NCBI GenBank assembly: GCA_022449345.1
Contig: JAKURL010000002.1
Span: forward strand, 36,302 to 100,301
From: Candidatus Thalassarchaeum sp.
GTDB taxonomy: Archaea > Thermoplasmatota > Poseidoniia > Poseidoniales > Thalassarchaeaceae
Length of the DNA: 64,000 bases
Reading direction: 5' to 3'
Below the pieces are notes generated by a model, which saw only the letters and a program-made list of their open reading frames with translations, had not been told where the DNA came from and ran no database searches. Of this stretch, positions 1,288-56,568 are shown piece after piece (position 1 is the stretch's first letter; each line of letters begins with the position of its first letter). A program made the position numbers and the translations under genes.

Positions 1288-1288
1288 A

Positions 1289-2776: not shown

Positions 2777-2780
2777 TAGA

Positions 2781-3113: not shown

Positions 3114-3122
3114 GGCGATAAT

Positions 3123-22403: not shown

Positions 22404-23705
22404 CTACTCCTTACAAACGATGTACAGAGTATGACTGCCGCTTCCTCTTTCCAACTCTAGGTCGACTATGAATCCACGAGCCCCTTCAAACTCCTTCATT
22501 GCCTTGTCCAATCTGCGTTGAAGGGTCGGATGCAAGTCTGGGTCGAGGCTGCATCGAAGAGTCACTTTTCCCACTTCATTTCGAGCAGCCGCGGCCGCTG
22601 TTTGTTCGATAGTGTGTAGTTCAGGAGGAGTGAGTCTGTGTTGAACAATTTCACCACTGGCGATTACAAAGGCATCGATTTCATCATCTCTGGTTAGTGG
22701 ATCGGTGCTGATTAGCAGTGGTCTTCTACCATCTAGCCGTAGCCATGAATGGCCTGCACTTTTGGGAAGAGCTCTGTCTAGCCAAGCCTCGTGCAGGCCA
22801 GATTGAACCAGCGCAGGGTCAACGATTGTTAGGTATGCACCAAAAGGTGGCGGACTACTCATCGAAACCAATTCTGATTTGGCTACCCTGCCCTCTATCG
22901 TCGCCATGATGTTCTTTTTCCCCATTCTTACACATCGAGAGGGTTCTTTGGAGGAAAGAGAGCCAATCCAAACCGACAGCCGGTCAATCCTCCCTCCGCC
23001 TTGGCTAAGGTATTCCCAAGTCCTTGCGATTCCAGGGAAAGAAGTCTCGATTACCGCATCGACCAATGAGCGTTGTTCCTCATTAAGTCGAGGTGAAAGA
23101 TCGAGTAAAATTGCAGGTCCACGTGGTCCGGTTTCAAGGTGATTTGCCCAAGACTTCAGTAGTGGGGCAAGAGCAGGTTCCATTTCGTCGATTTCATGTC
23201 TCTGCGCATCTTTTGGACGGGCGGGGTCAAGGTGCAACATACCGATTGGTGGATGCGCCCTAGTTCCTGCCTCCCTGAGGCTATTCCAGTACGAAACGAT
23301 TGCATCCTCTGCATCTGTTCCATCACCAATCAGAACGCGATCCATGGTTCTCTGTAGATCTTCTTCCCCTCCTGAAATATGCATATTCGCGGCGCAGAGT
23401 AACCCCACATTGGGATCCACTTCTATCGCCAATCCCGGCCGCTTGAGTCTAGTGGTGAATGCAATGAGTTGTACACCACTCCCGGCCGCCGCATCAAGGA
23501 TTACTCCTGCTGGAAGGTCAGCGGCTTCAATCTGCTCTGCTCTAATTTGAGCAACAGACCACGGAGTGGACAATCTTCGCATATCCTCCGTCATGTGGAA
23601 TTTAGGTTCACCCTTCCTGGCTGATTTGGCCTTAGCAACCTTGGAAGCCCTCTTTACAATGTCAGAAGAGGGGTTCAGAGCGTAGTGGCTTGGGCTCTCA
23701 TTCAT
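22404..23705 (-). CDS. class I SAM-dependent methyltransferase; motif I resembles the RNA cap guanine-N2 (Tgs1-like) family
   Basis: VILDAAAGSGVQLIAFTTRLKRPGLAIEVDPN (DxFxGxGxxxIxFA...AI(D/E)xDP pattern). Confidence 0.45.
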   Translation of the reverse strand: MNESPSHYALNPSSDIVKRASKVAKAKSARKGEPKFHMTEDMRRLSTPWSVAQIRAEQIEAADLPAGVILDAAAGSGVQLIAFTTRLKRPGLAIEVDPNVGLLCAANMHISGGEEDLQRTMDRVLIGDGTDAEDAIVSYWNSLREAGTRAHPPIGMLHLDPARPKDAQRHEIDEMEPALAPLLKSWANHLETGPRGPAILLDLSPRLNEEQRSLVDAVIETSFPGIARTWEYLSQGGGRIDRLSVWIGSLSSKEPSRCVRMGKKNIMATIEGRVAKSELVSMSSPPPFGAYLTIVDPALVQSGLHEAWLDRALPKSAGHSWLRLDGRRPLLISTDPLTRDDEIDAFVIASGEIVQHRLTPPELHTIEQTAAAAARNEVGKVTLRCSLDPDLHPTLQRRLDKAMKEFEGARGFIVDLELERGSGSHTLYIVCKE

Positions 23706-23754: not shown

Positions 23755-24741
23755 TCATATGGTTGCTCTATCAACCTTCAACTCAAATCGCAACCAAGAC
23801 TCTTGCAGTTCGTGCCCGTCGCTATTTCCGTAGGCGATTGGGGGTGGTAAGAGAGTAACGTGAGTGGTTCCAGTATCTATACCGGGAATTAGTCCTCTAT
23901 CTCCATCGATGTCGAGTCCAATTGCTGACCATCCGAATCCCTGAATGAAATTGTCGTCATCACCCGCGGTGACGATTAGATCACCTTCGTCAAGAAGTTC
24001 ATCAGTGTCGGCATCCCATACCTTGTAATGGACCTCAAGAGTATCTCCATCACTTGCATGCAAATCTCTTGGATTAGAACCTTCGAAGATGTGCACGTCT
24101 AGAATAACTTTAGCCTCTGGAACACGTAGGTGGGAAGCCTGAATCTGGATATCGTGCTCGGTTACCGCATTATTCAGTTCAATCTCGACAATTACAGTTT
24201 CATTTACCCCAATTTCATTTAGGGTTAGATCTGTATCTCCTTCTGAGGCAAATACGACCTCTCCACCAGTTATTTCAAGAACAATATCTAGCGTTTGGTT
24301 ACCTCTATTGTAAACTGCAACACTGGCTCTGTCGTCATCTCCTTGATGCTCCCAATCACATCGCAATTCGCCAGGATAGAGGAAGACTTCGTCCTGTTCA
24401 GAGAGAACATCCGGCCAATCCCAGTCTCCTAATCTAGAGTCACAGGTGTCGAATAACAAGTCAACTTCCCAATACCATCGATCATTTTCATCCTTAAACA
24501 GGTCTTCGTCAGTCATGGAAAATGCATCCTCATTGACCTTTGTGAATACATATACGCTGTATCCAACAACGATTGTTGAAACGATTAGCAGGGCAGCGGT
24601 AGCTAAAGAGAGCAAAATTGCTGCCCGCGGAATCGCCATTTCGTTGATACCAAGCGGTACAGTGGGGTGCTCGACCTCATCGGGAGTATCTGAGATCCAA
24701 CTGCGGGACACGATATGCGACCATACCCCGTCAGTCATCAA
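23755..24741 (-). CDS. membrane-anchored FKBP-type peptidyl-prolyl cis-trans isomerase
   Basis: N-terminal TM (AAILLSLATAALLIVSTIVVGY); C-terminal FKBP domain (GDTLEVHYKVWDADTDELLDEGDL...PGIDTG...PPPIAYG). Confidence 0.7.
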   Translation of the reverse strand: MMTDGVWSHIVSRSWISDTPDEVEHPTVPLGINEMAIPRAAILLSLATAALLIVSTIVVGYSVYVFTKVNEDAFSMTDEDLFKDENDRWYWEVDLLFDTCDSRLGDWDWPDVLSEQDEVFLYPGELRCDWEHQGDDDRASVAVYNRGNQTLDIVLEITGGEVVFASEGDTDLTLNEIGVNETVIVEIELNNAVTEHDIQIQASHLRVPEAKVILDVHIFEGSNPRDLHASDGDTLEVHYKVWDADTDELLDEGDLIVTAGDDDNFIQGFGWSAIGLDIDGDRGLIPGIDTGTTHVTLLPPPIAYGNSDGHELQESWLRFELKVDRATI

Positions 24742-36029: not shown

Positions 36030-39000
36030 ATGTCTATACCTCCTCAACTGCCGAGCAAGCGCAGGTATGCCTTGCTTCTTGCTGCATTGATGATTTTGTT
36101 GCCTTGGTCGGCATATTCTAGTGTAAATGAGTTAGATTCTGAGTTAGAAACTCGCGAGGTTTCGCAGGCGGCATGGGGTGCTTCCGGAAGCAACGACACC
36201 GGATGGATAGATTTGATCGCGACCGGAGCAGACCCTGTTAACGGAAGTTATGCGTACAGTGACCTATTCCTACCGTTTGCTCCGGGCGCTGAAATTTCCA
36301 ATTTAACCTTCGAGATAGCCGTCAACGGCTCGGCTGGTTATTGGGCTAACGAGCCACAACTGACTCTAATGGATACACAAACTCCAATCCTTGATTGGAG
36401 AGGTTATGGTGACCTTGGTCGGCAGGATGAGATGGAGAATAATCCGCCGACCGTACTCAATGGTACACTTAGCACTCATTTGAGACCCAACTCAATCTCA
36501 GATGCTTCTTGGGAACTGCCGGCCGGAGTGACACTCACAGATATGGTAATCGAGGCATTAAGGCCTGCCGATCCAAAGATATCCTACTCAGCAGTAGACA
36601 TAGAGATTCACGACACAGCGGTAAATCCAGTAGATGGCCGATTGTATCTATTGCTAGACGATGATCTTCTTCATCTAGACGCAAGGGCTCACAAGCAAAT
36701 TGTCGATATCGAAACAGGAATCATGGGAAGATCTCTAGCAATCGACGATGATTCTGGAATACTATTGATTGGAACAGAAGATGGCTCAGTGCTTTCACGC
36801 AGTTTGTCGAATTCTGCAATTCTGCCAGACCTGCGTACTAGTGATGGTTCTCAAAACGCCGGAATCTATGCCATAACAGTAGATGATCATGGAACAATTT
36901 GGGCGGCAGGAAATTGTACCATTTACTACAAGCCGATGGGGAATGTCGACTGGAGTGATTACGATTATTGCCAGTCGTTTAACATAGAGACTCCATCTGA
37001 CATTCTCATTATTGGCGATAGTGTCTACCTTGCAACCACTAGTTCTGGAGTACACATCATCAACTACATCACCGCTTCTTCTTCAGGCAGTGTTTCAGTC
37101 TCAATAGACTCTCAAATAGATTGGAGTACTCAGAATTTCCTTTCCTCAAACCTGATTACAGACCTCGAGATAGTTGGTAATAATCTTCTAATCGCGACCT
37201 ATGACACTGGAATCAATCGTAGAGACCTTACCTCACAATCTTGGATAGCCACTTGGTCAACAAATAACTGGTTGGCATCCAATCAGATTCACGGCTTGTC
37301 GCTTACCCCCGGCTGGCTTCATATCCTTGCTGGTACGACCATTCACGCCTATGATACCAATTCACTAATCTTCCAATCACAAAATCAACTTACTTCCCTC
37401 GGTTTGTATGGAAATGGTGCTATGGCCATTCCATGGCCTTCACATTCGGTTAGAGGCCCAATCACCTCCACAGCTCTGTTTAGCGATGGTTCTGGCACTT
37501 TGGGAATGCAGATTGGTGAGAACCCAGCAGGCGCTCTTACTCTTGTCAGTAGCCCATCTGTCGAAGGCATGGCGGTAGTCTCACGCATCAATGATGGTGC
37601 GTCGGGTGAGATTTGGGTTGCTGGGGGTAAAATAATCGATCGATTTGACGAATCAGATCGGGCTTGGGAGATTCCAATCGACATTAGTGACTACGTCAAC
37701 AATCCAGGTCAGATCGTTGCGATTGAACAGGATGGCAACGAGAAGGTTTGGATTGGAACGACTAATGCCGGAGTTCTGAGGCTAGAAAATACCGATGGAA
37801 CCTACATCGGAACTGTTTCAGGACTAAGTTCAACTCATGTTACTTCCTTATCTTACGACGATATCAACGGTTACTTGGTAGTAGGGCATAGCCAATCTGG
37901 AATTTCCATAATCGATACCAACCAGATGACATTAGTAGATACGATAACCACTTCCGATGGTTTAGATTCTGACTTCATAAATTCAGTTACAACTCGTTTT
38001 GGAATCGCCTACATCGCTACTCCGGATAAGGGAGTAATGCGTATCGAATTATCGACTTCGACAATCATCGGCTCGTGGCAATCACTCGGTGCCGATAATT
38101 TGGATGCAACACCGGTTGCAGTCGATGGTGACGTTGTTTACATCGGACTCTATGAGTTCGGTATTCTAGTCGTCGATAGACTAACTGGAGATATCTCAGA
38201 CCATTGGACACAGGATACCAACACTCTACCTGACGACGACGTTCTATCATTGGAAATGGACGATTTCGGTGGTCTATTAGTCGGCTCAGAGGGCTCCTTC
38301 TCCCGTTACGATGGCAGTACTTGGACCACTATGACAAGCAGTGGCCAATGGTGGAATCAACCTAGTGTATTCTACGATGTCACCAGCGACGGAGATGGGC
38401 TGTACGCTGGAACTAACAGAGGTGCTTGCAAGTGGGATTGGCAGTATCAATTCCAAGATTGTGTAAGCTCTGGTGATGGCCTCGAGAGTCGTTTCGTGTA
38501 TACCATAGAGATGCTAGCACCAAACCGTGCTTACACGGGTGGAAACTCCGGAGCTGGTATCGTCAATATGGATAATTTCTCAGTAATTGAGACTTGGACC
38601 GCCGGCGACAACACACAGCGCTCGCGTACGGTCAAGGTTGACGATATTCTCTACCTTGGATTCGAGAACACCGGCATAGCCCGATATGATTTGACAAATA
38701 ATCAGTGGTTGACTACTTGGGACGGAGATCAAGGATACATCAACGACGATGATGTAACCGCCTTAGTTCCAGGGGAAACATACGGAACAATTTGGGCAGG
38801 CGGAGATTTTGGTCTGACATTAATCGATGTCGTGAATGACGTAGTATTGATTGCTTGGGATAGAGGTTCGAATACCAACGGCCCTACACTTTCTAATTCA
38901 ATTCCTGCAGATATAGAAATCTACGGAGATGTATTGCATTACTCCACACAACGCTCAACCGGTTGGTGGGGCGGTGGCTCTGACAGCATCTATCGCATCA

Positions 39001-42000
39001 ATCTGACAACAAATTCTAGCATGACCACGCTTGAGGTTAACGATCAAACAGGTTGGACTGGAGTGGTGAACGGAATTGGAGTTGTAAACGACCAATTGTG
39101 GATTGGCATTAGACCTTCTCAGACTTGGAACGATGGAGATGGAACAATTGCTCGCTGGAATATGACCAACGAATCTTGGGAGGAAGATCTGGCAACAATC
39201 GGAAATGTTCTACGCGTTAATGCTCGATTCCTAGGTGATTGTTTCCCATTGAACACAAGTTCTTGTGAACTTTGGGTGGCGTATGGGAATTACATTCTAA
39301 GACGATTCAATGCAGATACAATGATGCTTCTAGATGAGTGGGTCGACGTTGACGGTCCAATTCGAGGAATGACCGAATTCGAAGGAGAATACCTATTCGC
39401 TAGCATGAATGGTATTCTTCGATGGAATCCAGTAAACGAAACTTGGCTAGATTCTTGGACTCCTGGAGACGGCTTACCATCGAGTTCTGAGGAAGAGTTC
39501 TACTCGATGGCGGTTATCGAAAACGATCTTTGGTTGGGTACAATGGAGTCCAGTGGCTGGAACTCAAACGCTCAGGTACTGAGAAAGAACGGAACAGACG
39601 GGAATTGGACATCTTGGGATTTAGGAACAGGAGACATCCCTGACGGATATCCAGCCGACATCAAGTTGTGTGATGATATTGTCCACATTGCTATCGGCGC
39701 TCGATTTTTCTGGGGCAATCAAGGTGGTGTTGCCCGTTATGACTTCGCAGACCATGATTCAGATTCCTTGACCAATGAATGGATTAGTGCGATGACTTCT
39801 GGTAGCTCGGGTTTATCCAATAATGATCCAAGGGCCGTGGCTTGCGATGAGAGCAACGACATTTTGTACATTGCATACGATACTGAGGGTGTAGGCATCG
39901 ATCGCTATAACTACAATACGGACACATACCTTTCCACCCTTACTTCAGTCGATGGAATCAGCGAGGACAGAATATTCCCTGGTGGATTGTTACATGACAA
40001 CAACGTCCTCTTGGCCGCTCACCAATTCGATAACCATGGAGGAATTTCTCGTTTGATTACTTCCGGAACAGCAACCGCAAATGGCCAAATCCTAGACCCC
40101 GGAATGGACGGCTGTTCTATCGAAAGAGCTCCTTCGTCTACAGGTCAAGTAGCCTACGCTGTGGGGCGCTCAGGTCAGACAACAGGACTGAACAGAGTCG
40201 ATAGGCTAGACAGTTCAGGATTAATCGCAAGTGGCTATGATGAACTCACTGGACTAACCAGTGGCCGCGTGATGGAAATAATCTCCAATGACACACATGT
40301 ATGGGTTACCTCATCCTTGGACTCTAACTCCTACTACGGGTCCTCGATTCTTCAGGGAGAAATTCTCTCGAATGGCTCTGTTAGATGGGAATTTGGTTAC
40401 AATTTCCGAGAGGATATAGTCAATGAAATGATGTTGGATGGTGAGACTCTATGGGTCACCACGGCAGGCCGAGGCCTGAAGGCAATTGACTTGAAACAGC
40501 GCCGTGTAACCTCCACTCCGCCGGCACTACACGCACAGATGGATGGAATGGTGTTGGAGAACGGTACGATGTATGTTGGACTAATGGGTAATCAAGGTTC
40601 AGCGGCCGGATTCCAGATGTTCAATACCCAAAATGCTCAGTGGGGTCATGGCAGTCTAATCGCCGGATTACCGAGCAACCTTGTGCGAGATTTCATCATT
40701 TACGGTGACCACATCATGATCGCTACCCATGGTGGAATTGGAATGTACAATACCACCCGTGACGATTGGGATAATCCGATAACCACAATCGATGGATTAC
40801 CTTCACCGATAATCACCCATTTACACGCCCTCAACACAACCATCCAGGGCGGTGGAAAGGTTCTGGCTGGCGGTGCAGCAGGTATGACGGTCCTGCATCA
40901 ACACAACCTTTCGGTCCTCAACACATTAGGATTCAATGATGGACTGATGGGTAATACCGTGAGTGGAATAGTAGAGGCAGGACCGAGTTCCCGCGTCGTT
41001 CAAAACGCCGATGGAACGAACACCACTCTTTACCACGACGCGTCGATATTCATCTCACACAATGGACAAGGGCCAACTCGACCCGGTGTAGCGGCCTGGG
41101 ATTTGGCCACCGATATGGCAAATGGTACTTACAATATCGACATGGTTCCAAGTAATGACATTAGGGCGATTGTTGCTGATGACTGGGGAGTTCACATCGC
41201 TACCGACGTCGCTCCTTTGGTACATTGGAACGGTAGCATGATGCAGATGGAAACTGGAGTTAGTACCAGTTCCTTACTTTCTTGGCCTCCATACGAGATG
41301 CACAGTGACGGCCAGCACATCGTGGTGATGAGTCCTCGTGGTCTCGACGTTGTAGATGTAGACGGAAGACACAATGTGGTGACTAGCCGAGTGATTACTG
41401 GTCTGCAAGGTGGATATGTCGACTTCAGCGGTTTCTATGCTGTTGGGAATGACGGTCTTCATGTCTACAAACCAGTAATTAGTCTGCAAGAGAATTCACG
41501 TGAGCATCAACGCCGTGCAGATCCGCTAACAGTATTGTATAGTGGCCGAAATTGGGATATTACCAATACAACTCATCCAGGAATGTCAACGGTTTTGGTA
41601 ACTCCTGATAATCCGATTGAGATTCCTGAGACCTCTAATGTTGCTGCCCCTGGTAAACTTCCGATGCACGTCGGAACAATGACGATGATGGCACCTCAAC
41701 GAGGTGCCTGGGTGTGGGCTCAGTCTACGTCGTTGAATTATACTGGAAGTTGGGATTTGGCTACCTCTAATGGAGGAATTCAACAGGCCTTCCAGTCAGC
41801 CATTTCTGCAGTAGGGCCTGGTACCTCTTCTGCAATTCTTCATGTCCAAATGCAGTCACCTCAGGATGGAGCCATTCAGGTTAGGTTGACTTATGATTGG
41901 GAGCGAATCGAGGCTCCAACTGTCATTACCAAACTTGAGGATAGACCCAATGATGGTGGAGGCGTAATCGAAGCCTCTTGGCTACCTGCAGAGGATGCTG

Positions 42001-44618
42001 CTTGGCATGCCTATAGATTGTATGTATGGGATTCGTCGGTTGACCCACTATGGGAACCAACTCAGGAAGACCTAGATTCATTCTCTACCTACATGAGATC
42101 CAACTTCTGGTCTCGCACAAATGCCACCATTACCCGAGCGGATAATGATGGACTAACCGAGCAATTGCGAGATGACCGTCAATACCGAGCAGCGGTGGTT
42201 ATCGAATATGCAGATGGCTCACTAGGTGTACCGATGGCATATCCTCACAATGTAACTCCGACTGATGAGATTCCAGCAGCCCCTGCTTGGATGACAGCTA
42301 ATCCAGTATCGGGAGGAGCAGCGGGTACCATCTTCCTAGAATGGGCCGCCTGTACAGAACTAGATCCGGATAGAGTAAGAATTTGGGCGGTCCAGCAGGA
42401 GATTACCAGTGCAGTAGGACTTTCTGACCCATTCGAATTCCATTGGAGTACCGGAAATACAACCGCCCTGCAGCTAGAAGGCGGAGTTGCTTACTGGTTT
42501 GCTGCAGTTTGTGTTGATGAGGCTGGACAGTCATCAATCGAGAACGCCACAATAATCGGACCTGTTGTTACTGCGGGTGGTTTGGATGATGGAATTCCAC
42601 CTGTTCCTATCACTGGAACAACAGCCATCGACGTTCCTAACGACGAAGGTGGTAGAATCAACGTCACTTGGGATGCAAATACCGAGGAGGACTGTACCTA
42701 CTACACGGTCTACACCTTGCCAGCCTCTGGCTGGCAACCCCCTTCAACGGTCGATGGTTGGCCAGTTGCAGGATATACAGACAGTTGTGAAACGACTTCG
42801 ATTATCATCGACTCTATAGGAGAAAGTAGTCTAATCGATGGAACGGTCTACTGGATAGGAGTAGTCGCTTACGATGATTGGGGCAATGGGGATGTCGACA
42901 ATGTATTGGTTGTCGACGCCACTCCTGAGGCAGATTTCGATGGTGAAGCGATACCACCAGACCGCGTAACTGGCCTCGAAGCTTGGGATTACCCAGATGA
43001 TGATGGAACGGCCATAGATATCCGTTGGAATCGCTCAGCCGCCGATGATTTCTCATTCTATACAGTCTGGGTATCCGAATACCCGTTGAATAATGTAACC
43101 GAGATATGGGAATTGTGTAGTGAAAATCCATCCTCGTGTGGTCTCGTTATCATTAACCAGCGTCAGTTTGGGGCAAATTTCCAGTTAGAATACACCGCGG
43201 AGAGAGCCCTTTACGGTAGTTCGGCAGATACCTTAGAGGCGACTCCAATCCACTCGATGATTCCGCTCTACGTGACAATCACCATTCACGATATCAGTGG
43301 AAATGTGCACCTAAGCGATCTTTCGGAACATATGGTCTTGGTCACTCCAATGGATAACCGTGGAGATATTTCTCCGCCAGACCGCCTAGAAGCGCCGGTA
43401 CTGAGAGATAGGCCCAACGATGCCGGAAATGCGATGTTCGTAGAATTCCAACAAAGTGATGCTTCTGACATTGCGGAATATTGGATTTACGCGGTAATTG
43501 ACACTCCAGTTCTATTGGAGAGAACCGATGACTTACACCCCGCGATGGTTATCGACAGGGAACAAGGTCTACCAGTTCTGCTAACCGAGTTCTCTGCTCA
43601 TGGAGATGACGAGGCGACACCACTGGTGCCAAACCGCCGAATTTACGTGGCGGTAGTCGCCGTTGATTCATCTGGCAATGCTTGGATGGACAACCTCGCT
43701 AGCACATGGATCGAGTTGTCCGACGAACTCTCCGCAGATCCATGTCCAGAGTGCCCAGATGTTAGTGGGCTACGGGCTAGTTGGAATGCTGCGGGTTCAC
43801 TGATTGAGGTAAATTGGGATAATGTCGAAGACCCGAAGTATGCAAGCTACTACGCCTTTGTCAGCCTTGACACATTCGATGATACACGTAACGCAACTTT
43901 GGTCAAGTCTGGAATGAGAGACACTATTTTGATTCTCAACGAATTCAACGGCGAGATGATTGACCGTGAAGAGAGATATTGGATTGAGATTGTAACTTGG
44001 AACGGCCAAGTCCACACATATCACGCCGACCCGATTGAGGTTTCACCTTGGGAGGAATCTTCCTTTGGTACAACCCAACCAGGAGATGATTCAGCAGGAG
44101 AGTCTTGGGTTGAGAGAATACTTGCAGGGGAGATGAACATGGTAATCCTCGCGCTATCGGTAGTAATGCTGCTAATCGGCGCACTGATGTTCATCAGACC
44201 AAGAGGAGAAGCGGCTCCAGAACCTTGGGAGATGGGCGCGCTCGAGGTCGAATTGGAAGAACAACTAGAGCGCGAGGCGGCAGGTCTCAGCGACGACGAA
44301 GAATTCGGCGTTGATGATTTGGAGATTGATGGTGGCTTGGTAGCCAATGCTCGGCGCAAAGACGGAGATGCTCCTGATTCAAGCGAGAGCGATTATACAG
44401 AGACAGCGGCGAGTGCTGGAGTACCTGTAGAAGAAGACCTCGGCCCAACACCATCTGCTGAAAGCGAGGTCATCGACGAATTACTCGGTGCCGAGGAAGA
44501 AGAATTAGATCTCGGCGATCTAGATGATATGGCCGATGACCTAAACTTGGATGAAAAGCCTGATGATGATTCCGAAGACGAGGATATTGACACCTCCTTC
44601 CTCGACGAGATGCTCTGA
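36030..44618 (+). CDS. giant secreted surface protein (2862 aa): signal peptide, many beta-propeller (Reg_prop/YVTN-like) repeats, FN3-like modules, a C-terminal TM anchor and an acidic cytoplasmic tail
   Basis: N-terminal signal; a repeating G..vW.GT..G.. pattern; C-terminal MVILALSVVMLLIGALMFI followed by a D/E-rich tail. Confidence 0.85.
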   Translation: MSIPPQLPSKRRYALLLAALMILLPWSAYSSVNELDSELETREVSQAAWGASGSNDTGWIDLIATGADPVNGSYAYSDLFLPFAPGAEISNLTFEIAVNGSAGYWANEPQLTLMDTQTPILDWRGYGDLGRQDEMENNPPTVLNGTLSTHLRPNSISDASWELPAGVTLTDMVIEALRPADPKISYSAVDIEIHDTAVNPVDGRLYLLLDDDLLHLDARAHKQIVDIETGIMGRSLAIDDDSGILLIGTEDGSVLSRSLSNSAILPDLRTSDGSQNAGIYAITVDDHGTIWAAGNCTIYYKPMGNVDWSDYDYCQSFNIETPSDILIIGDSVYLATTSSGVHIINYITASSSGSVSVSIDSQIDWSTQNFLSSNLITDLEIVGNNLLIATYDTGINRRDLTSQSWIATWSTNNWLASNQIHGLSLTPGWLHILAGTTIHAYDTNSLIFQSQNQLTSLGLYGNGAMAIPWPSHSVRGPITSTALFSDGSGTLGMQIGENPAGALTLVSSPSVEGMAVVSRINDGASGEIWVAGGKIIDRFDESDRAWEIPIDISDYVNNPGQIVAIEQDGNEKVWIGTTNAGVLRLENTDGTYIGTVSGLSSTHVTSLSYDDINGYLVVGHSQSGISIIDTNQMTLVDTITTSDGLDSDFINSVTTRFGIAYIATPDKGVMRIELSTSTIIGSWQSLGADNLDATPVAVDGDVVYIGLYEFGILVVDRLTGDISDHWTQDTNTLPDDDVLSLEMDDFGGLLVGSEGSFSRYDGSTWTTMTSSGQWWNQPSVFYDVTSDGDGLYAGTNRGACKWDWQYQFQDCVSSGDGLESRFVYTIEMLAPNRAYTGGNSGAGIVNMDNFSVIETWTAGDNTQRSRTVKVDDILYLGFENTGIARYDLTNNQWLTTWDGDQGYINDDDVTALVPGETYGTIWAGGDFGLTLIDVVNDVVLIAWDRGSNTNGPTLSNSIPADIEIYGDVLHYSTQRSTGWWGGGSDSIYRINLTTNSSMTTLEVNDQTGWTGVVNGIGVVNDQLWIGIRPSQTWNDGDGTIARWNMTNESWEEDLATIGNVLRVNARFLGDCFPLNTSSCELWVAYGNYILRRFNADTMMLLDEWVDVDGPIRGMTEFEGEYLFASMNGILRWNPVNETWLDSWTPGDGLPSSSEEEFYSMAVIENDLWLGTMESSGWNSNAQVLRKNGTDGNWTSWDLGTGDIPDGYPADIKLCDDIVHIAIGARFFWGNQGGVARYDFADHDSDSLTNEWISAMTSGSSGLSNNDPRAVACDESNDILYIAYDTEGVGIDRYNYNTDTYLSTLTSVDGISEDRIFPGGLLHDNNVLLAAHQFDNHGGISRLITSGTATANGQILDPGMDGCSIERAPSSTGQVAYAVGRSGQTTGLNRVDRLDSSGLIASGYDELTGLTSGRVMEIISNDTHVWVTSSLDSNSYYGSSILQGEILSNGSVRWEFGYNFREDIVNEMMLDGETLWVTTAGRGLKAIDLKQRRVTSTPPALHAQMDGMVLENGTMYVGLMGNQGSAAGFQMFNTQNAQWGHGSLIAGLPSNLVRDFIIYGDHIMIATHGGIGMYNTTRDDWDNPITTIDGLPSPIITHLHALNTTIQGGGKVLAGGAAGMTVLHQHNLSVLNTLGFNDGLMGNTVSGIVEAGPSSRVVQNADGTNTTLYHDASIFISHNGQGPTRPGVAAWDLATDMANGTYNIDMVPSNDIRAIVADDWGVHIATDVAPLVHWNGSMMQMETGVSTSSLLSWPPYEMHSDGQHIVVMSPRGLDVVDVDGRHNVVTSRVITGLQGGYVDFSGFYAVGNDGLHVYKPVISLQENSREHQRRADPLTVLYSGRNWDITNTTHPGMSTVLVTPDNPIEIPETSNVAAPGKLPMHVGTMTMMAPQRGAWVWAQSTSLNYTGSWDLATSNGGIQQAFQSAISAVGPGTSSAILHVQMQSPQDGAIQVRLTYDWERIEAPTVITKLEDRPNDGGGVIEASWLPAEDAAWHAYRLYVWDSSVDPLWEPTQEDLDSFSTYMRSNFWSRTNATITRADNDGLTEQLRDDRQYRAAVVIEYADGSLGVPMAYPHNVTPTDEIPAAPAWMTANPVSGGAAGTIFLEWAACTELDPDRVRIWAVQQEITSAVGLSDPFEFHWSTGNTTALQLEGGVAYWFAAVCVDEAGQSSIENATIIGPVVTAGGLDDGIPPVPITGTTAIDVPNDEGGRINVTWDANTEEDCTYYTVYTLPASGWQPPSTVDGWPVAGYTDSCETTSIIIDSIGESSLIDGTVYWIGVVAYDDWGNGDVDNVLVVDATPEADFDGEAIPPDRVTGLEAWDYPDDDGTAIDIRWNRSAADDFSFYTVWVSEYPLNNVTEIWELCSENPSSCGLVIINQRQFGANFQLEYTAERALYGSSADTLEATPIHSMIPLYVTITIHDISGNVHLSDLSEHMVLVTPMDNRGDISPPDRLEAPVLRDRPNDAGNAMFVEFQQSDASDIAEYWIYAVIDTPVLLERTDDLHPAMVIDREQGLPVLLTEFSAHGDDEATPLVPNRRIYVAVVAVDSSGNAWMDNLASTWIELSDELSADPCPECPDVSGLRASWNAAGSLIEVNWDNVEDPKYASYYAFVSLDTFDDTRNATLVKSGMRDTILILNEFNGEMIDREERYWIEIVTWNGQVHTYHADPIEVSPWEESSFGTTQPGDDSAGESWVERILAGEMNMVILALSVVMLLIGALMFIRPRGEAAPEPWEMGALEVELEEQLEREAAGLSDDEEFGVDDLEIDGGLVANARRKDGDAPDSSESDYTETAASAGVPVEEDLGPTPSAESEVIDELLGAEEEELDLGDLDDMADDLNLDEKPDDDSEDEDIDTSFLDEML

Positions 44619-48431: not shown

Positions 48432-49850
48432 ATGCAGAAAACAAAGAATGCGAGCATGATGATTGCGCTGCTCCTTGTTTTGATGGCTGGTTCCGTTGGC
48501 GTTTCCGCCGATGGTTCTGACCCACTCGACCCCTCCGACGGAGGGGCCGACTGGGACGGAGACGGCCTGACAAACGCAGAGGAGACAGCTGAAGGCACGG
48601 ACCCCACCAACCCCGACACTGACAACGATGGTCTACCGGACGGTTGGGAGGTTGCATACGGACTAAATCCAAACTCGGCTAGTGACGCTAACGCGGACCC
48701 AGACGGTGATGGATTGACGAACTCTCAGGAGTACGCGTCCGGAACCAACCCCAACGCGGCTGACACCGACGGTGATGGGCAGAACGACGCAAGCGATCCT
48801 TTCCCGAACGATCCGAACAACGGATCGATGTCGGATTCGGATGGCGACGGTATCCCAGATGCGTATGATCCGGACTACGGTGACAACGGAGAGGGAACTG
48901 GAGACGGCGGAACTGACGGTGGCGGAGATTCCGACCAAGACGGAGAGGGCCAAGGTCAGAACCAAGGATCCCAATCCGGTCAAGACGGTCAGCAGGGCAG
49001 CGGTCAGCAGGGTGGAGAACAATCCAACCAGCAAGACAACGGCCAAGGCCAGCAGCAAGGCGGAGAACAATCCGGCCAGCAGGGTGACCAAGAGAGTCAA
49101 GACCAGAATGGTAACAACCAGAATGGTCAGAACCAGCAGCAGCAAGGCCAGACCCAAGACAACAGTCAGGGTCAGCAGGGCCAGCAGTCCGACCAGCAGC
49201 AGAGTCAGCAGCTCGACAACCAAGACCAGAACGGTGAGAACGACAACGATGGCGATGGTATCCCAGACGACCTGGACTTCGATGATGACCAGGACGGCAT
49301 CCCCGACAATGTGGATGAATTCCCTGAGGACCACGACAACGACGGCATCAATGACGCTGAGGATGATGATGACGATGGCGACGGCATAGACGACCGCGAG
49401 GAAGTCAATGACGGCGATCCTAACTCAGATATCTACGATCACGACAACGATGGCGTTCGCGACAACATCGATTTCGACATCGACAATGACGGCATCGACA
49501 ATTGGAATGACGTTGGACCGAACGGTGAGGACTACTCACGCGATCACGACAACGACGGACTAAATGACGGAGTCGACCCAGACGACGATAACGACGACAT
49601 CCTAGATGTCGACGAGATCGACGGCGCTATCGGTCTCTGGAGATACGACCACGACAACGATGGTCTAACCGACAGAGTCGATACCGATGACGACAACGAC
49701 GGACTTTCCGACTGGTTCGAGCAGAACGATGGCTGGGATAACACCGGCCAGTTCGATCACGACAACGACGGCATCCCAGATCATCTGGATGACGACGATG
49801 ACGCCGACGGCATCCTCGATGAGGATGAAAACGACGGCAGCCTACTGTGA
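48432..49850 (+). CDS. secreted, highly acidic protein with thrombospondin-type-3-like Ca-binding Asp repeats (DxDxDGxxDxxD) flanking a Q/G/N-rich low-complexity core
   Basis: Signal peptide; at least 12 repeats of the DHDNDG..D..D / DTDGDG type; a roughly 100-aa Q/G/N/S tract. Confidence 0.75.
   Translation: MQKTKNASMMIALLLVLMAGSVGVSADGSDPLDPSDGGADWDGDGLTNAEETAEGTDPTNPDTDNDGLPDGWEVAYGLNPNSASDANADPDGDGLTNSQEYASGTNPNAADTDGDGQNDASDPFPNDPNNGSMSDSDGDGIPDAYDPDYGDNGEGTGDGGTDGGGDSDQDGEGQGQNQGSQSGQDGQQGSGQQGGEQSNQQDNGQGQQQGGEQSGQQGDQESQDQNGNNQNGQNQQQQGQTQDNSQGQQGQQSDQQQSQQLDNQDQNGENDNDGDGIPDDLDFDDDQDGIPDNVDEFPEDHDNDGINDAEDDDDDGDGIDDREEVNDGDPNSDIYDHDNDGVRDNIDFDIDNDGIDNWNDVGPNGEDYSRDHDNDGLNDGVDPDDDNDDILDVDEIDGAIGLWRYDHDNDGLTDRVDTDDDNDGLSDWFEQNDGWDNTGQFDHDNDGIPDHLDDDDDADGILDEDENDGSLL
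49240..49840 (+). repeat. DNA-level tandem degenerate repeats (gaccacgacaacgacggc...) encoding the Asp-repeat units
   Basis: The gacaacgacgg / gatgacgacg motifs recur many times; explains the spurious antisense ORFs. Confidence 0.6.
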
Positions 49851-50995: not shown

Positions 50996-52210
50996 ATGCT
51001 AACCGTCGAGGCATTTAGGGTTGAAGTCGGGCGCGAGGAGGCGGGAGGAACGGACTTGAGCGGGCTAACTCTAGTTGGAAGCGGCTGGCATCCAGCACTG
51101 TTCCGCTCAGAGGCAGAGGCATTAGTTGGTCCAGTCGGTTTTGTTCATCCAAGGGTTGTAATTACTAATTCGATAGATGAGGAAGCGCTCAATCGTCTAA
51201 GCAGATCAGCTCTAGTTGACGAAGTGCTTTGCAAAGCAGAACATAGCGAGGTTATTGAACCAACAAGAATAATCCAACGAATTACAGATTGGGCAAGCAA
51301 GAATCTACCAAACGGAAGCTTTGCGGTCAGAGTCAGAGTAATCGGTTCGGGTTTAGCAGGCTTTTCGCGGTCCGCTATCGCACAGGGTGTGGGAGGAGAA
51401 CTCTCTAGTGATTCGCATCCAGTAGATTTGGAAAACCCAGAAAATGAAATTGTAGTAATTCTAGCAGGCCCAGAAGACCCACCAAACCATCCTGACCCAT
51501 TATACCTCTCACCACCGATGATAATCTGGGGATTGAAACAAGAAAATTGGCAGCGTTCAGGTTGGGGAGGTCGTTCACCGATGGACCGCCCATTTTTCCA
51601 ACCGGTGTCTTTGGAACCAAGATTGGCGCGACTGATGATTTCTCTTGGTCATCGCTCCGACACAGAACCTACAACAGTAATCGATCCGTTCTGCGGAACC
51701 GGTGGAATAGCAATTGAAGCCATGTTAGCAGGATTGAATGTCCTCGCAAGTGATCTTGACCCGAAGATGGTCAAAGGCACCAAGGAGAATTTGCAATGGG
51801 CATCTGAAGACCTCTGTAGCGGCTATTCTGCAACATGGGATGTGCAAGAGTCTGGCGTCGGGCTTACTCCTGATGTTTGGGGCAAGGTAGGTGGTGCAAT
51901 CTTTGCTTTCGACCCTCCATATGGCCGCAATGCTTGGAAGTCTGATGATGGTTACCAACTATTCCTCAAGGCCTGTTCTGCTGCTAGAACAATTGACCAT
52001 TCAGGCTCTCTATGTACACTTCTTCCAACTGACCCAGCGATTCTGAAAGATAATTCAGACGAACCGTTAGACTATCTCGTTATGGGCAAGCCTTGGTCAA
52101 AGGTGGTTGACGAAATGCTCGACCGTGGGTGGAAAGTAGCCCTGACTGCACCGGTCAAAGTTCACCGCTCGTTGGCACGATTATTGGTTGTCGCGCACCC
52201 GTCGCATTGA
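50996..52210 (+). CDS. THUMP-domain tRNA (guanine-N2) methyltransferase, Trm11/Trm-G10 family
   Basis: Motif I VIDPFCGTGGIAIEA; motif IV FAFDPPYG; an N-terminal THUMP-like region. Confidence 0.7.
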   Translation: MLTVEAFRVEVGREEAGGTDLSGLTLVGSGWHPALFRSEAEALVGPVGFVHPRVVITNSIDEEALNRLSRSALVDEVLCKAEHSEVIEPTRIIQRITDWASKNLPNGSFAVRVRVIGSGLAGFSRSAIAQGVGGELSSDSHPVDLENPENEIVVILAGPEDPPNHPDPLYLSPPMIIWGLKQENWQRSGWGGRSPMDRPFFQPVSLEPRLARLMISLGHRSDTEPTTVIDPFCGTGGIAIEAMLAGLNVLASDLDPKMVKGTKENLQWASEDLCSGYSATWDVQESGVGLTPDVWGKVGGAIFAFDPPYGRNAWKSDDGYQLFLKACSAARTIDHSGSLCTLLPTDPAILKDNSDEPLDYLVMGKPWSKVVDEMLDRGWKVALTAPVKVHRSLARLLVVAHPSH

Positions 52211-52236: not shown

Positions 52237-52313
52237 GGGCGATTGGTGTAGTCTGGATATCATCTGGCGCTTCGGACGCTAGGACACGGGTTCGAATCCT
52301 GTATCGCCCACCA
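52237..52313 (+). tRNA. tRNA-Arg (anticodon TCG), CCA encoded
   Basis: Cloverleaf folded by hand: acceptor GGGCGAT/ATCGCCC, anticodon stem TGGCG/CGCTA with loop CTTCGGA, T-arm ACGGG-TTCGAAT-CCTGT, discriminator A, then CCA. Confidence 0.85.
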
Positions 52314-52317
52314 CTAA
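52302..52317. repeat. attL-like copy of a 16-bp direct repeat (tatcgcccaccactaa) overlapping the 3' end of tRNA-Arg
   Basis: Exact 16/16 match to 54016-54031. Confidence 0.8.
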
Positions 52318-52341
52318 TCATTTCCAAGTCAGAATGAACAT

Positions 52342-53382
52342 TCAAAGCAAATCCGAGTATGGAATTAAGTGCTTAATTTCCCCATACAAATTATTTCTTT
52401 GTTGTTTAAGTTCTTTGATTTCGATACTAACCGTTTCTTTGTATTTCTGCATTTTTCCTATATTTTTGGTTAGTTTTTGAATTTCCTCATCATTCTTTTT
52501 TATCTTGTCCTGTTTCCTTTCTTCTTTCCGCAATAATAGATTTGCATCTCGTACTTCCCTCTCAGCTTTTGCAACCTTGTCCGCTAATTTGCCTTCCTTC
52601 TTTTTGTTCATTTCTCGAGCGCTATCATTTCTAGCCTCTGCAGCACCATAACCAATGCCCAAGACAATAATACTTCCACAACAGCCCAACACAGGCATAG
52701 GCTCGTCCATGCTGTAACTTTCAGCGGCACTACTGGTAAACCAATTTGTTCTTTCATCATTTCCGTTGGAACAATCTTCTTTGTCATCTAGAACCTTAGA
52801 ACCATGAATCGTCTCTCCATTTCCACAATCAAATCCTTGCTCAAAATATGAATCCCTTTGAGTTTCCCAGTGCATCATACCGAGAGCCAAAATAATAATC
52901 GCTGCGATCCACCATCCAAGCAAGAATCCCTCGGAATCAACATAGACTGGATGTCTGTTAAGTTCTCTTCTCTTTTCATCCAATTGAACCTTTTTTGTTA
53001 CTTTTTTTACATTTTCTCTCAGTTCAACAAGTGTCCCAGAACTGATAGTTTTTTCTGCCCTACTTGTCCTTGAATAACGGATGATTCTCTTCTTTAATTC
53101 CTTTTTATTTCCAGAGACCGGCAGTCCATATCCGTGTAATATATCCTTCAATTGATTTACAGTTAGAGAATCGGGGATCGAGTCTCCCCACAACTGAGTT
53201 AAGTCATCAAGATCAAGTTGCTGGAATTGATTGTCAGATTCTAACTTCTCAATAAGTTTCTTTGATTTAGCCAATTCTTTAGAGTTAATTTTCTTCTTTT
53301 CTTGCAATTTAGCAATTTCTGCATTTTTTTTATAGATTTCTTTGAGAGATTTTTTGAGGAATTTCAGGTCTCTTTTCCCCAT
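52342..53382 (-). CDS. element cargo: coiled-coil protein with a SAP-like motif, two TM helices flanking a Cys-containing extracytoplasmic loop, and a K/E-rich C-terminal coiled coil
   Basis: LTVNQLKDILHGYGLPVSGNKKELKKRI SAP-like; TMs FLLGWWIAAIIILALGMM and VLGCCGSIIVLGIGYGAA; low-GC codon usage. Confidence 0.6.
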   Translation of the reverse strand: MGKRDLKFLKKSLKEIYKKNAEIAKLQEKKKINSKELAKSKKLIEKLESDNQFQQLDLDDLTQLWGDSIPDSLTVNQLKDILHGYGLPVSGNKKELKKRIIRYSRTSRAEKTISSGTLVELRENVKKVTKKVQLDEKRRELNRHPVYVDSEGFLLGWWIAAIIILALGMMHWETQRDSYFEQGFDCGNGETIHGSKVLDDKEDCSNGNDERTNWFTSSAAESYSMDEPMPVLGCCGSIIVLGIGYGAAEARNDSAREMNKKKEGKLADKVAKAEREVRDANLLLRKEERKQDKIKKNDEEIQKLTKNIGKMQKYKETVSIEIKELKQQRNNLYGEIKHLIPYSDLL

Positions 53383-53931
53383 TCAATCACCTAATCTCTT
53401 GTTTAATTGGAAATGAGCATCATCAACCGATTCGATAACTTGTTTCGCCTGTTTAATGTCCGCAAAGGACAATTTTGAGAAATGTTCAACTTTGACATCG
53501 TGGTCCTTAATTATGGTTTGAAGGTCCTCTATCTGGACAATTGCATATTCAGGATATTTTTTTGAATATTCCAATATTTTTTCTAATTCATCTTCGATTC
53601 CAAGGATAATCATTTTCAAATCTCCGACGAAATTTTCTTCCTTTTCTTTTCTCTCCAAATATCCTTTTACGTCCCATGCAATACTAGATAATGTGTCCAA
53701 TTTATTATCCAATTCAACAAGTCCACTCATGGTAGCAATTTGAAGTTCAGCGACGGATCCAATTGAATTTAGGATTAAATTTGTTGAACGTCTAATATCT
53801 TCAGATGTTTCTCTTTGCATAGCCCTCATTCTTCCGATGTCGGACTTCATTGACCTTAATTTGACGGAATTATACCCTGAGAATCCAAGACCGAAACCGC
53901 TACCCCAAGAGGTCTTTGGACGCTTGCTCAT
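53383..53931 (-). CDS. element cargo: 182-aa predicted helical cytoplasmic protein, unknown function
   Basis: ORF abuts the downstream gene with a 0-nt gap, which suggests an operon; same low GC. Confidence 0.55.
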   Translation of the reverse strand: MSKRPKTSWGSGFGLGFSGYNSVKLRSMKSDIGRMRAMQRETSEDIRRSTNLILNSIGSVAELQIATMSGLVELDNKLDTLSSIAWDVKGYLERKEKEENFVGDLKMIILGIEDELEKILEYSKKYPEYAIVQIEDLQTIIKDHDVKVEHFSKLSFADIKQAKQVIESVDDAHFQLNKRLGD

Positions 53932-54015
53932 TGATTATGCGTTAGTCCTTTCAAACTTAATCTCACCGCAATGTAATTTCTAGTCGGTGTAACTCATAAT
54001 TTGAACTGTAATCAT

Positions 54016-54031
54016 TATCGCCCACCACTAA
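54016..54031. repeat. attR-like copy of the 16-bp direct repeat (tatcgcccaccactaa)
   Basis: Exact match to 52302-52317. Confidence 0.8.
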
Positions 54032-54277
54032 CTCTCCACGGGGTCTTCCTTAGACCTCACTTTCTTTATCCAGCGGAATAGTAGTCTCGAGAATACCATT
54101 GAGAATGCTAGGAAAACTAGTGAGTACCACCAGGGGTTATTCTCGCTAGTGGCGATGAAATAGGTCACAATTAGAATGCCCATTCCGTAGAAGGCTCGAA
54201 AGATCGAGTAGGCAATGAATGACTTGACCAATGGATTTGCAAGAAACCGTTGCAACCAAGTTTGCTCAGGCAATTGG

Positions 54278-55408
54278 CTAATCCTCTCGCCTCCAATGAC
54301 TAATCTTGTCTCCACCGACCTCAATTTCTCTGAATTGTTGCAGACCAGCGGAAACCAATTCGGATTCAGAGAACACCGTTCCGTTTCCACTCAACTCGAT
54401 AGGCGATTGGCATAGGTGAGCTCTGTCGACTAATCCAGCTGCCAAGAATCTCCTCCATGTGTTTGGGCCGCCTTCAACGAGAAGTGATTGGGTTCCTCGA
54501 TCGCCAAGGAAATCTAGGATGCGAGCGATTGGGATTTCACCATCATCAGCCGCTAGGACTGCTCGCTCGACGTTTTCTGCATCCGAATCTGGTAATTCGA
54601 ATGGCTCGGCGTGAATCAGCAGTGTAGGTGCATGGCCATCATTCAGTAATTTGCAATCTGAGGGAGTTCTACCATTAGGATCAATGATAATGCGTGTAGG
54701 TGGATTTCGTGGCCCAATATCTGGTCCGCGTACCGTCAAAGAGGGGTCATCTCGAACCACTGTGTCAACCCCAACTAGAATCGCCATAGAATCAGCCCGA
54801 AGAGCATGAACAATCTCCAATGATTCCGCAGAGGAAAATCGCTGGGCAGGCTCGTTGGGATCACAATCAACTCTTCCATTTGCATCAATTGCAGCCTTCA
54901 ACAGAATCTCCGGGCGCATATTTTCGCACCAATGCATGAATTCACTCATCTGAGCATTGCATTCGTCAGCCAGAAGCCCAGAATCGACCTCAACTTCTGA
55001 TTTCATCAGTGTTGCAGCACCATCTCCACGAACTGTTGGGTTTGGATCATCAGCACCGATTACAACTCTCTTGACTCCTGCCCAAAGTAAGGCCTCAGTG
55101 CAAGGAGGAGTTCTCCCAAAGTGATTGCATGGCTCTAATGTAACATAGGCTGTAGAGCCCTGAGTTGGGACACCCTTTGCCTCAGCATCGGCAATCGCCA
55201 TTTGTTCTGCGTGCAAACCCCCCAAGTGGTCGTGCCACCCCTCAGCGATGATTTCTCCATTCTGAACTAGCACACATCCAACTAACGGGTTAGGCATTAC
55301 TCGATGCCTACCACGCTCGGCGAGCTCGATGGCTCGCCACATGAATTGTGCATCATCGTCCATGCTGTTCGGACCTTGCGAATGCCCCATCACACTTGAT
55401 TCCTCCAT
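54278..55408 (-). CDS. ribD: bifunctional riboflavin biosynthesis protein RibD (pyrimidine deaminase plus reductase), bacterial type
   Basis: CMP/dCMP-type deaminase zinc motif HAE...PCxxC (HAEQMAI...EPCNHFGRTPPC) and a RibD_C reductase half. Confidence 0.85.
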   Translation of the reverse strand: MEESSVMGHSQGPNSMDDDAQFMWRAIELAERGRHRVMPNPLVGCVLVQNGEIIAEGWHDHLGGLHAEQMAIADAEAKGVPTQGSTAYVTLEPCNHFGRTPPCTEALLWAGVKRVVIGADDPNPTVRGDGAATLMKSEVEVDSGLLADECNAQMSEFMHWCENMRPEILLKAAIDANGRVDCDPNEPAQRFSSAESLEIVHALRADSMAILVGVDTVVRDDPSLTVRGPDIGPRNPPTRIIIDPNGRTPSDCKLLNDGHAPTLLIHAEPFELPDSDAENVERAVLAADDGEIPIARILDFLGDRGTQSLLVEGGPNTWRRFLAAGLVDRAHLCQSPIELSGNGTVFSESELVSAGLQQFREIEVGGDKISHWRRED

Positions 55409-56482: not shown

Positions 56483-56568
56483 TGGCGCAGACGGAGAGAT
56501 TTGAACTCCCGAGTCCAAGGGACACCGGATTTCAAATCCGGCGCAATACCAGGCTATGCGACGTCTGC
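56483..56568 (-). tRNA. tRNA-Ser (anticodon TGA), type II with a long variable arm, CCA encoded
   Basis: Reverse complement folds as: acceptor GCAGACG/CGTCTGC, D-loop AGCCTGGTA, anticodon stem CCGGA/TCCGG with loop TTTGAAA, variable arm GTCC-ctt-GGAC, T-arm GGGAG-TTCAAAT-CTCTC, discriminator G, then CCA. Confidence 0.85.

Follow-up and report, generated by a model that had tools for sequence, protein, structure and literature searches.

The 64,000-nt window analyzed here, by which we mean the whole stretch of DNA considered, covers positions 36,302-100,301 of the forward strand of contig JAKURL010000002.1 (assembly GCA_022449345.1) from Candidatus Thalassarchaeum sp. At the 3' end of a tRNA-Arg(TCG) gene, the window carries an AT-rich island of two genes bounded by two identical copies of a 16-bp repeat. 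The island is a genuine, precisely bounded insertion, and its content suggested that it was cut from the chromosome of a sister-type lineage. The tRNA, the repeat copies, and the insert were arranged as follows (window positions).

52237-52313, plus strand: the target gene, tRNA-Arg(TCG), whose CCA end is encoded (ARAGORN; Rfam, 51 bits)
52302-52317, plus strand: left repeat copy, attL-like, made of the 12-nt tRNA 3' end and CTAA (exact match)
52318-54015, no strand: the insert, 1,698 bp, 36.5% GC (delimited by composition and by occupied and empty alleles)
52342-53382, minus strand: ORF346 (Pfam SAP, hydropathy, family alignment)
53383-53931, minus strand: ORF182, all-helical, no known domain (Pfam, structure model)
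53980-54015, minus strand: TauE/SafE relic, the last 12 codons, MITVQIMSYTD and stop (translation; alignment A6; comparison with contig L002 and the relatives' TauE)
54016-54031, plus strand: right repeat copy, attR-like, probably the recipient's leftover tRNA 3' end (exact match)

An earlier, sequence-only reading of this DNA had proposed a perfect 16-bp direct repeat derived from the tRNA-Arg end, and this was borne out: the 16-mer TATCGCCCACCACTAA was present in identical copies at 52302-52317 and 54016-54031, and the tRNA was recognized by both ARAGORN and Rfam. Each copy began with the final base of the T stem, ran through the complete 3' acceptor strand, discriminator, and CCA, and included 4 nt of flank; the tRNA-Arg(TCG) was intact in occupied and in empty alleles alike. 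One occupied contig (L030) had a G>A change within the right repeat copy. No third copy of the 16-mer was found in the window with up to 2 mismatches allowed, and the number of copies expected was 0 (100 shuffles). The same reading had named a dispersed repeat family as something to check for, and this candidate was rejected because the 16-mer occurred only twice in the window.

The GC content of the insert was 36.5%, compared to 49.4% in the rest of the window (z = -6.3 against windows of equal size), and its tetranucleotide distance was likewise deviant (z = 7.4). The AT-rich, foreign composition recognized at the outset therefore held, with a value slightly higher than the one third then estimated. 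GC3 was 0.34 in the insert genes versus 0.42-0.44 in the adjoining genes, and GC1 dropped far more than GC3. The encoded proteins were rich in K, E, I, and L, and part of the GC skew arose because this amino acid composition lowers GC1. As anticipated, the insert held only two co-oriented genes, ORF182 and ORF346, which abut on the minus strand, and no integrase, as neither open reading frame (ORF) matched a recombinase in Pfam, PHROGs, or PADLOC. A non-exhaustive ORF scan with Pfam found no integrase among 10 candidate window ORFs of 250-448 aa. No non-coding RNA was found in the insert, the Rfam matches being the two tRNAs of the window only, and no terminal inverted repeats of the insert were found. 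A casposon, miniature inverted-repeat transposable element, or other transposon model was rejected, as there were no terminal inverted repeats and no transposase or casposase gene.

The insert was polymorphic within its population, and three flanking genes served to follow the slot in other genomes.

50996-52210, plus strand: THUMP/UPF0020 RNA methyltransferase gene, left flank (Pfam UPF0020, E=9e-15; THUMP)
54028-54390, minus strand: ORF120, small membrane protein gene, right flank, ~98 aa in relatives (conserved)
54278-55408, minus strand: ribD (deaminase/reductase), right flank, syntenic (Pfam RibD_C, E=4e-33)

Population contigs were gathered by exact window proteins (the methyltransferase, RibD, diacylglycerol kinase, and ORF346), and the exact methyltransferase protein of the window, which was indexed in 73 blocks of the contig collection, was the population marker. 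The empty site that had been predicted exists: tRNA-Arg is followed directly by CTAACTCTCCACGG, with flanks 99.2-100% identical to the window. It was first met in a scan of metagenome contigs for the core joined to the right flank, and the flanks of the first empty-site contig were 99.4% and 99.0% identical to the two flanks of the window. That first match (L029; ENA UPTF01010040.1, coverage 2.3) was a chimera in which, at positions 1-3352, the archaeal methyltransferase gene had been fused to that of a bacterial TonB-dependent receptor, and owing to this the empty site was re-confirmed on contigs of at least 20 kb. The empty allele, in which the tRNA runs into CTAACTCTCC, was present in L029, L031-35, and L037-41 and was sequence-confirmed in at least 10 contigs encoding the identical methyltransferase. 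Insert-bearing copies numbered nine (the window and eight contigs). The TAG stop codon of ORF120 lies inside the right repeat copy, within the 4 nt after the CCA, and therefore empty alleles have no spacer between ORF120 and the tRNA end. The slot had three states in one population, being empty, occupied by the tRNA island, or empty at the tRNA with a different insert in the 3' end of ORF120. An assembly artefact was rejected, as occupied and empty junctions recurred across many independent assemblies; the 16-bp repeat is also likely shorter than the usual assembly k-mers.

Empty alleles formed the majority and were found on both flank haplogroups, and the island was carried on at least four left-flank haplotypes. 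The flank haplotype nearest to the window was that of an empty contig, L035, which matched the window over all 1,377 bp of the left side and had a single difference across 2,400 bp of the right side. The insert showed 0 differences over 1,698 bp in eight of the nine occupied copies (seven full-length, one of 1,385 bp), and the ninth had one single-nucleotide polymorphism (SNP) in the insert. As flanks diverged by ~0.17%, ~3 SNPs would be expected in the insert, with a probability of 0.04-0.07 per pair of observing none; the island is younger than its flanks. Short island contigs ended exactly at the points of allele divergence, all in integrated form, and the two ends of L048 lay exactly 30 nt outside the branch points, the pattern expected of a k=31 bubble. 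Assembly bubbles of this type suggested that both alleles coexist within one sample. At a SNP 11 nt from attR, the window had G where the other occupied contigs had A. The flank SNPs gave no discrimination between mechanisms, because recombination tracts are expected to end at heterology, mimicking independent integrations.

Fourteen species-level genomes of Marine Group IIb (MGIIb; Thalassarchaeaceae, genus O1) were syntenic at this locus with 68-86% nucleotide identity, and the methyltransferase gene was conserved and syntenic in these MGIIb-O1 relatives (14 relatives found). Homology of the relatives to the window broke off at 52318, after the tRNA and CTAAT, and returned at ~54044-54062 in the 3' end of ORF120. 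In most species the slot held a single gene for a 250-aa TauE/SafE permease (Pfam E=2.6e-39), the stop codon of which abuts the tRNA CCA. TauE abutted the tRNA in 11 related species, and the slot held TauE and a PKD-domain gene in three species and unrelated genes in three others. A check for the same genes in all relatives, as proposed in the sequence-only reading, found the island genes missing at this locus from 13 of 13 informative related species. No integrase was found in the variable slot of the 13 related species, and no second copy of the core was found in the slot of the 13 informative species except L018. In that contig (positions 9590-9763), a ~31-bp repeat of the tRNA-Arg 3' end and flank (GAATCCTGTATCGCCCACCA[T/C]TTTGATTCAT) occurred in copies 143 bp apart with ~110 bp between them, which may represent a relic att pair or a short insertion. 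The PKD gene encoded a secreted protein of 263-282 aa between tRNA-Arg and the TauE stop codon and had no tRNA repeat. Its insertion point was the point where a sister lineage holds the two-gene island.

L014 11404-12195, L017 11340-12188, and L024 3369-4217: PKD-domain gene

This sister lineage, represented by two overlapping metagenome contigs (L001 and L002), carried the same gene pair directly after tRNA-Arg, followed by an intact TauE and with no repeat. Its proteins were 86% (ORF182) and 68% (ORF346) identical to those of the window, at ~84% nucleotide identity for the pair. Intact TauE of the relatives ends in ...AAIMITVQIVSYLN, and that of sister-lineage contig L002 ends in ...AAIMITVQIISYIGY before the stop codon, the latter tail being the closest to the relic in the insert. 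The recipient genome had no TauE at this locus. The TauE relic probably marks the end of the donor DNA, and because of this relic and the repeat-free arrangement of the sister lineage, the insert appears to be transplanted from a sister-type chromosome, as a segment of its tRNA, gene pair, and TauE cut inside TauE.

The two junctions of the insert differed in kind. The right junction, CAT/TATCGC, joined TauE codon 239 to tRNA position 66 with 0 nt of exact microhomology and 4/6 imperfect matches to donor GATGGC. As the insert appears to be cut inside TauE, this junction would have been made by an illegitimate event, and its blunt form is typical of illegitimate joins. The left junction lay in the tRNA 3' end and CTAA(T), which is common to the sister lineage (L001). 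Position 51 of the tRNA (window 52287, T-stem), a lineage-specific substitution used as a recombination marker, was C (C-G pair) in this population and T (T-G wobble) in 14/14 other MGIIb lineages. Occupied alleles kept C51 of the population, and there was no donor-type polymorphism tract on the anchor side.

We tentatively favor a recent, non-autonomous insertion of sister-lineage chromosomal DNA, anchored on tRNA homology at one end and closed by an illegitimate join at the other. This reading draws on the precise presence and absence of the insert, the donor-type TauE relic, the sister arrangement, and the absence of recombinase genes, all of which were observed; the enzymology, direction of events, and route of DNA transfer are what it proposes. 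The donor would have been a sister MGIIb-O1 lineage with ORF182-ORF346 between tRNA-Arg and TauE, providing a fragment that spanned the tRNA end, the gene pair, and 36 nt of TauE, and in the recipient tRNA-Arg would have directly abutted ORF120, with no TauE. On one side, the fragment would have recombined via the common tRNA 3' end, and on the other, TauE codon 239 would have been joined illegitimately to tRNA position 66. Since the ORF120 stop overlaps the 4 nt after the CCA, a join sparing both the tRNA and ORF120 must fall inside the tRNA of the recipient, whose leftover tRNA end would become the right repeat copy. The process may have been homology-facilitated illegitimate recombination (HFIR) or, equivalently, Campbell-type insertion of a circularized fragment via 16-17-bp homology, which would give the same product. 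The occupied allele would later have spread between strains through ordinary homologous recombination of the long flanks. HFIR is known in bacteria (PMC3240628), and relic-leaving displacement of type VI secretion system (T6SS) effector modules is also known in bacteria (PMC5361080).

The third state of the slot provided an argument for integrase-independent insertion at this locus. Insert B was an 835-bp segment of 36.7% GC in this population, lying ~100 bp away from the tRNA site, and was itself polymorphic for presence and absence.

L032 3521-4442, and also L031, L033, L071-L074, and L079 (~ window 54060-54100): insert B

The product of insert B was a multi-pass membrane protein of 260 aa, Cys-rich at its C-terminus and without a Pfam match, and an imperfect direct repeat (38-57 bp) of the 3' end of ORF120 flanked the segment on both sides. 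At insert B, the functional copy of ORF120 had a foreign-type C-terminus (..KKVRAK and stop). Insert B and the tRNA island never occurred together in one contig. Insert B mirrors the tRNA island but cannot use the same core; one-sided homologous insertion predicts such an architecture, whereas an integrase acting on an identical core does not predict insert B. No integrase was found in the population contigs read, where only the three alleles occurred.

Several points weigh against an insertion by tRNA homology and an illegitimate join. A tyrosine integrase would leave just such an exact repeat, which covers the acceptor 3' strand and CCA as tRNA att cores canonically do. Because all other lineages have T51 and the occupied alleles C51, exchange with a donor of another species would have been confined to <=30 nt, and homology of <=30 nt is very short for RadA-type recombination. 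The only sampled lineage with the island plus TauE has T51, and the alternative would be an unsampled donor of the same species with the island beside an intact TauE. The sampled sister island was only 84% identical, and the true donor was not among the sampled lineages. We know of no documented case of HFIR in archaea and of no work on DNA uptake in Poseidoniales. The attR-proximal SNP (G in the window, A in the others) could also be explained by independent integrations.

It is quite possible that the insert behaves instead like a cis-mobilizable element (CIME), mobilized in trans by a tyrosine integrase that is encoded elsewhere, on an integrative plasmid, a provirus, or a Charybdis-type element, and recognizes the 16-bp tRNA-Arg core. 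Past aberrant excision from the tRNA/island/TauE arrangement via a pseudo-site in TauE would have yielded a 1,714-bp circle that now integrates and excises at attB. Such an integrase would account for the exact repeat of the acceptor 3' strand, CCA, and 4 nt, for the precision of the occupied and empty alleles, and for the likely presence of both in one sample (the L048 bubble). The near-invariant island on differing flanks, with the closest flank haplotype of the window being empty, is consistent with it, as are the C51/T51 difference, which limits any exchange to the last <=30 nt, and the independent ~31-bp repeat of the same tRNA end in L018. Integrase-bearing 4.6-kb elements are reported to adjoin tRNAs in Poseidoniales (bioRxiv 10.1101/2025.08.03.668216), and CIMEs are defined as having kept attL and attR and lost their integration genes (PMC5704250).

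However, an integrase-bearing occupant of this tRNA was found in 0/13 species and in no population contig read, and the insert held no relic of a mobile-element gene. The predicted circle junction would consist of GAACTGTAATCAT, TATCGCCCACCACTAA, and TCATTTCCAAG in direct succession; the junction 30-mer was absent from IMG/VR, the tRNA-end 20-mer had no match there, and the 11 IMG/VR matches to the 16-mer had no related context and look like chance. The TauE relic also demands an extra, rare pseudo-site event (4/7 matches), and the neighboring insert of the same architecture has an imperfect repeat of a different sequence. Of the trans-mobilized, site-specific integration put forward in the sequence-only reading, the precise insertion and the empty site were found, but no helper integrase, attP junction, or integrase-bearing occupant was. 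The new kind of minimal integrative cassette also raised there drew no support.

The nature of the two cargo proteins bears on the remaining explanations. In ORF346, the SAP domain (PF02037) spanned aa 72-103 (42.2 bits vs a 23.9 cutoff, E=5.7e-11), and the order of elements was an N-terminal coiled coil, SAP, two membrane helices (~aa 150-172 and 229-249), and a C-terminal coiled coil ending in the conserved IKHLIPYSDLL. The loop between the helices was acidic, Cys-containing, and conserved (GFDC.NGE.IHGS.VLDG.DDCSNG.DE), and resembled LDL-A, with Ldl_recept_a at 22.6 bits, under the 24.1 cutoff. The SAP domain was optional, as several members of the ORF346 family lacked it in the family alignment. 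AlphaFold2 models were helical and of low confidence (pLDDT 64 for ORF182 and 59 for ORF346), and with these low-confidence models Foldseek found no fold relatives in the PDB at E <= 0.001. One other protein of the window (8587-9933, plus strand; 448 aa, acidic, and proline-rich, with a zinc-ribbon-like CxxC..CxxC N-terminus) had a SAP match at E=1e-5. It was rejected as a paralogue of ORF346, with the SAP domain alone in common, and it indicated that this archaeon has SAP domains in apparently native genes as well.

Both families were rare. A word-indexed search of 5.8 billion proteins returned 2 homologues for ORF346 and 7 for ORF182, and an exhaustive profile search returned 94 representative clusters for ORF182. 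An ORF346-like gene directly followed the ORF182-like gene in every contig that showed the downstream gene, and several longer family members were natural fusions (P0013 and P0025 end in IKHLIPYS/VKHLIPHS). The two proteins therefore act together, as they are always adjacent and are fused in some relatives. The members that were looked up were all on contigs of <=5.5 kb, and near-identical copies of the module had different upstream flanks in three lineages. Its neighbors varied, including a serine recombinase and a GIY-YIG/zinc-knuckle protein (L050), a HATPase_c_3 protein (L055), and a beta-propeller protein (L051). No relatives of the cargo were found in IMG/VR (by single protein and profile), GenBank phages, PLSDB, PHROGs, or PADLOC, and the comparison with viral and plasmid databases that had been suggested beforehand thus came back empty. 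With low confidence, the cargo may form a membrane-anchored, two-protein coiled-coil complex whose SAP domain would bind DNA in the cytoplasm and whose small acidic loop would face outward, and might serve a strain-variable envelope or virus-interaction function.

Two further module lineages showed features of their own. A distant copy in L050 (positions 946-3759; CACLJT010000023.1), the second protein of which had no membrane helices, lay directly behind a gene for a 284-aa serine recombinase (Resolvase, E=2e-31) and was followed by a gene whose product combined a GIY-YIG domain with two CCHC zinc knuckles. This context looks like a mobile element or virus. No homologue of the L050 serine recombinase was found in the window or in any fetched locus. 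In a module lineage of 34% GC, imperfect palindromic units of ~30 nt (GGTACCC...) stood upstream of gene 1, and in L003 gene 2 was followed by a 125-bp block with 82% identity to the one that precedes gene 1 in L005-L007, which suggests flanking imperfect repeats or tandem cassettes.

L003 130-230 and 1789-1913, L004 63-142, and L005 53-177: palindromic units and blocks

A more active version of trans-mobilization, in which the cassette is a minimal mobile element that borrows a recombinase to hop between tRNA-Arg sites while its two proteins serve maintenance or transfer, appeared improbable. If true, a borrowed-recombinase cassette would give Poseidoniales their first described CIME- or satellite-like element.

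Decay of a larger provirus or integrative plasmid, with the integrase and other genes lost through internal deletion, would explain the tRNA-end repeat, the foreign composition, and the missing integrase. However, the DNA adjoining attR is the 3' end of TauE, collinear with the sister chromosome, and the deletion would need to end exactly at the core boundary. No contig held a larger version at the site, and the cargo has no viral or plasmid relatives, which makes this origin, also raised in the sequence-only reading, quite unlikely.

It is very unlikely that the gene pair is ancestral at this locus and that the empty alleles reflect secondary loss by recombination between the 16-bp repeats. 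The sister lineage does have the pair at the same tRNA, with an 84% identity that resembles the flank divergence between species, and the nearest flank haplotype of the window is empty. However, ancestry leaves the replacement of the TauE body by a 16-bp tRNA fragment unexplained, the empty alleles make up the majority and are found with either flank haplogroup, and the flanks are more diverse than the island.

The weakest explanation, a self-mobilizing minimal element whose SAP membrane protein and partner would be its own mobility or transfer machinery, could draw on the constant pairing and occasional fusion of the two genes, the short contigs (<=5.5 kb) and variable upstream flanks among near-identical copies in three lineages, the single position directly behind a serine recombinase gene (L050), and the DNA-binding nature of SAP, but it is highly improbable in view of the lack of a detected catalytic domain, the loss of SAP from several family members, the lack of terminal inverted repeats, the right end being the tail of another gene, and the absence of the family from virus and plasmid collections.

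Beyond the insert, the surroundings of the slot included genes for FEN1, the THUMP methyltransferase, ORF120, RibD, a diacylglycerol-kinase-like protein, tRNA-Ser, and cytochrome oxidase subunits. No partial repeats of the tRNA-Ser (56483-56568) 3' end were found. Elsewhere in the window, the only GC-rich stretch (55-60%) encoded an extremely acidic protein of 472 aa with D/G/N/Q repeats (48432-49850, plus strand). The counterparts called in two strain contigs (L030 and L036) were 471 and 508 aa long, indicating that the length of this gene product varies within the population. A giant ORF of 2,862 aa occupied 36030-44618 on the plus strand, and faint beta-propeller Pfam matches were listed for its counterpart in L044. 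Two adjacent minus-strand ORFs of 433 and 328 aa (22404-23705 and 23755-24741) had no Pfam match at E<=0.01.

At the resolution of a single population, this locus shows cleanly how an uncultured archaeal group of global abundance alters its flexible genome by one gene cassette at a time. Within one population, the same 350-bp slot may be empty, hold insert A (the tRNA island), or hold insert B, and the relic of each insert reveals the gene order of its donor. The locus also calls for caution: where genes are tightly packed, an illegitimate join can be forced to leave a direct repeat of a tRNA end around AT-rich DNA, and such a repeat therefore does not prove that an integrase acted. The cargo, a rare and uncharacterized membrane/coiled-coil pair, is a candidate for a strain-specific envelope or virus-interaction function.

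Among known systems, integrative elements that target tRNA genes in archaea and bacteria (proviruses with a tyrosine integrase, integrative plasmids, and genomic islands) share with the insert its position at a tRNA 3' end, a direct repeat that restores the tRNA, precise alleles, and deviant composition. Unlike them, the insert is 1.7 kb, has no integrase gene or pseudogene, and has cargo unrelated to viruses or plasmids. Williams reportedly described sublocation classes of tRNA att sites in 2002. Casposons are Cas1-dependent transposons at the 3' ends of tRNA or EF-2 genes with 14-15-bp target duplications, and the insert likewise shows a duplication of ~15 bp at an archaeal tRNA 3' end. In contrast to casposons, it has no terminal inverted repeats, Cas1, or polymerase, its right end is a TauE relic, and its left end falls at the same point as in the donor genome, a coincidence not expected from a staggered-cut model. 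The Charybdis clade P elements (bioRxiv 10.1101/2025.08.03.668216) are similarly small and are reported to lie integrated next to tRNA genes of Poseidoniales, and they are a conceivable source of an integrase acting in trans. However, they measure ~4.6 kb with ~10 genes, all integrated ones encode an integrase, and no sequence link between them and the insert was found. Integrated proviruses seem to be rare in Poseidoniales (PMC11706807).

The CIMEs of Firmicutes (PMC5704250) resemble the insert in that attL and attR delimit them at a target gene's 3' end (a tRNA gene in the present case) and in having no integration or transfer genes of their own, so that the insert, like them, could move only with a recombinase in trans. 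However, CIMEs arise by decay of integrative and conjugative or integrative and mobilizable elements and usually stand beside, or are accreted with, a cognate element. The insert shows no mobile-element relic and no cognate element in the genomes or contigs examined; one of its ends is a chromosomal gene relic, and its host is an uncultured planktonic archaeon. HFIR (PMC3240628), as in the T6SS effector-immunity modules of Vibrio cholerae (PMC5361080), was described in naturally competent bacteria, not in archaea, and differs from the present case in that the usable anchor may be only 16-30 nt and the leftover of the recipient mimics a tRNA att site. The two are alike in placing foreign chromosomal DNA beside a conserved anchor with one homologous and one illegitimate junction, in leaving truncated gene relics, and in needing no dedicated recombinase. 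The insert fits best among the integrase-less genomic islets at tRNAs, a known kind and not a new class of element, and its distinctive feature is its demonstrable descent from a sister chromosome.

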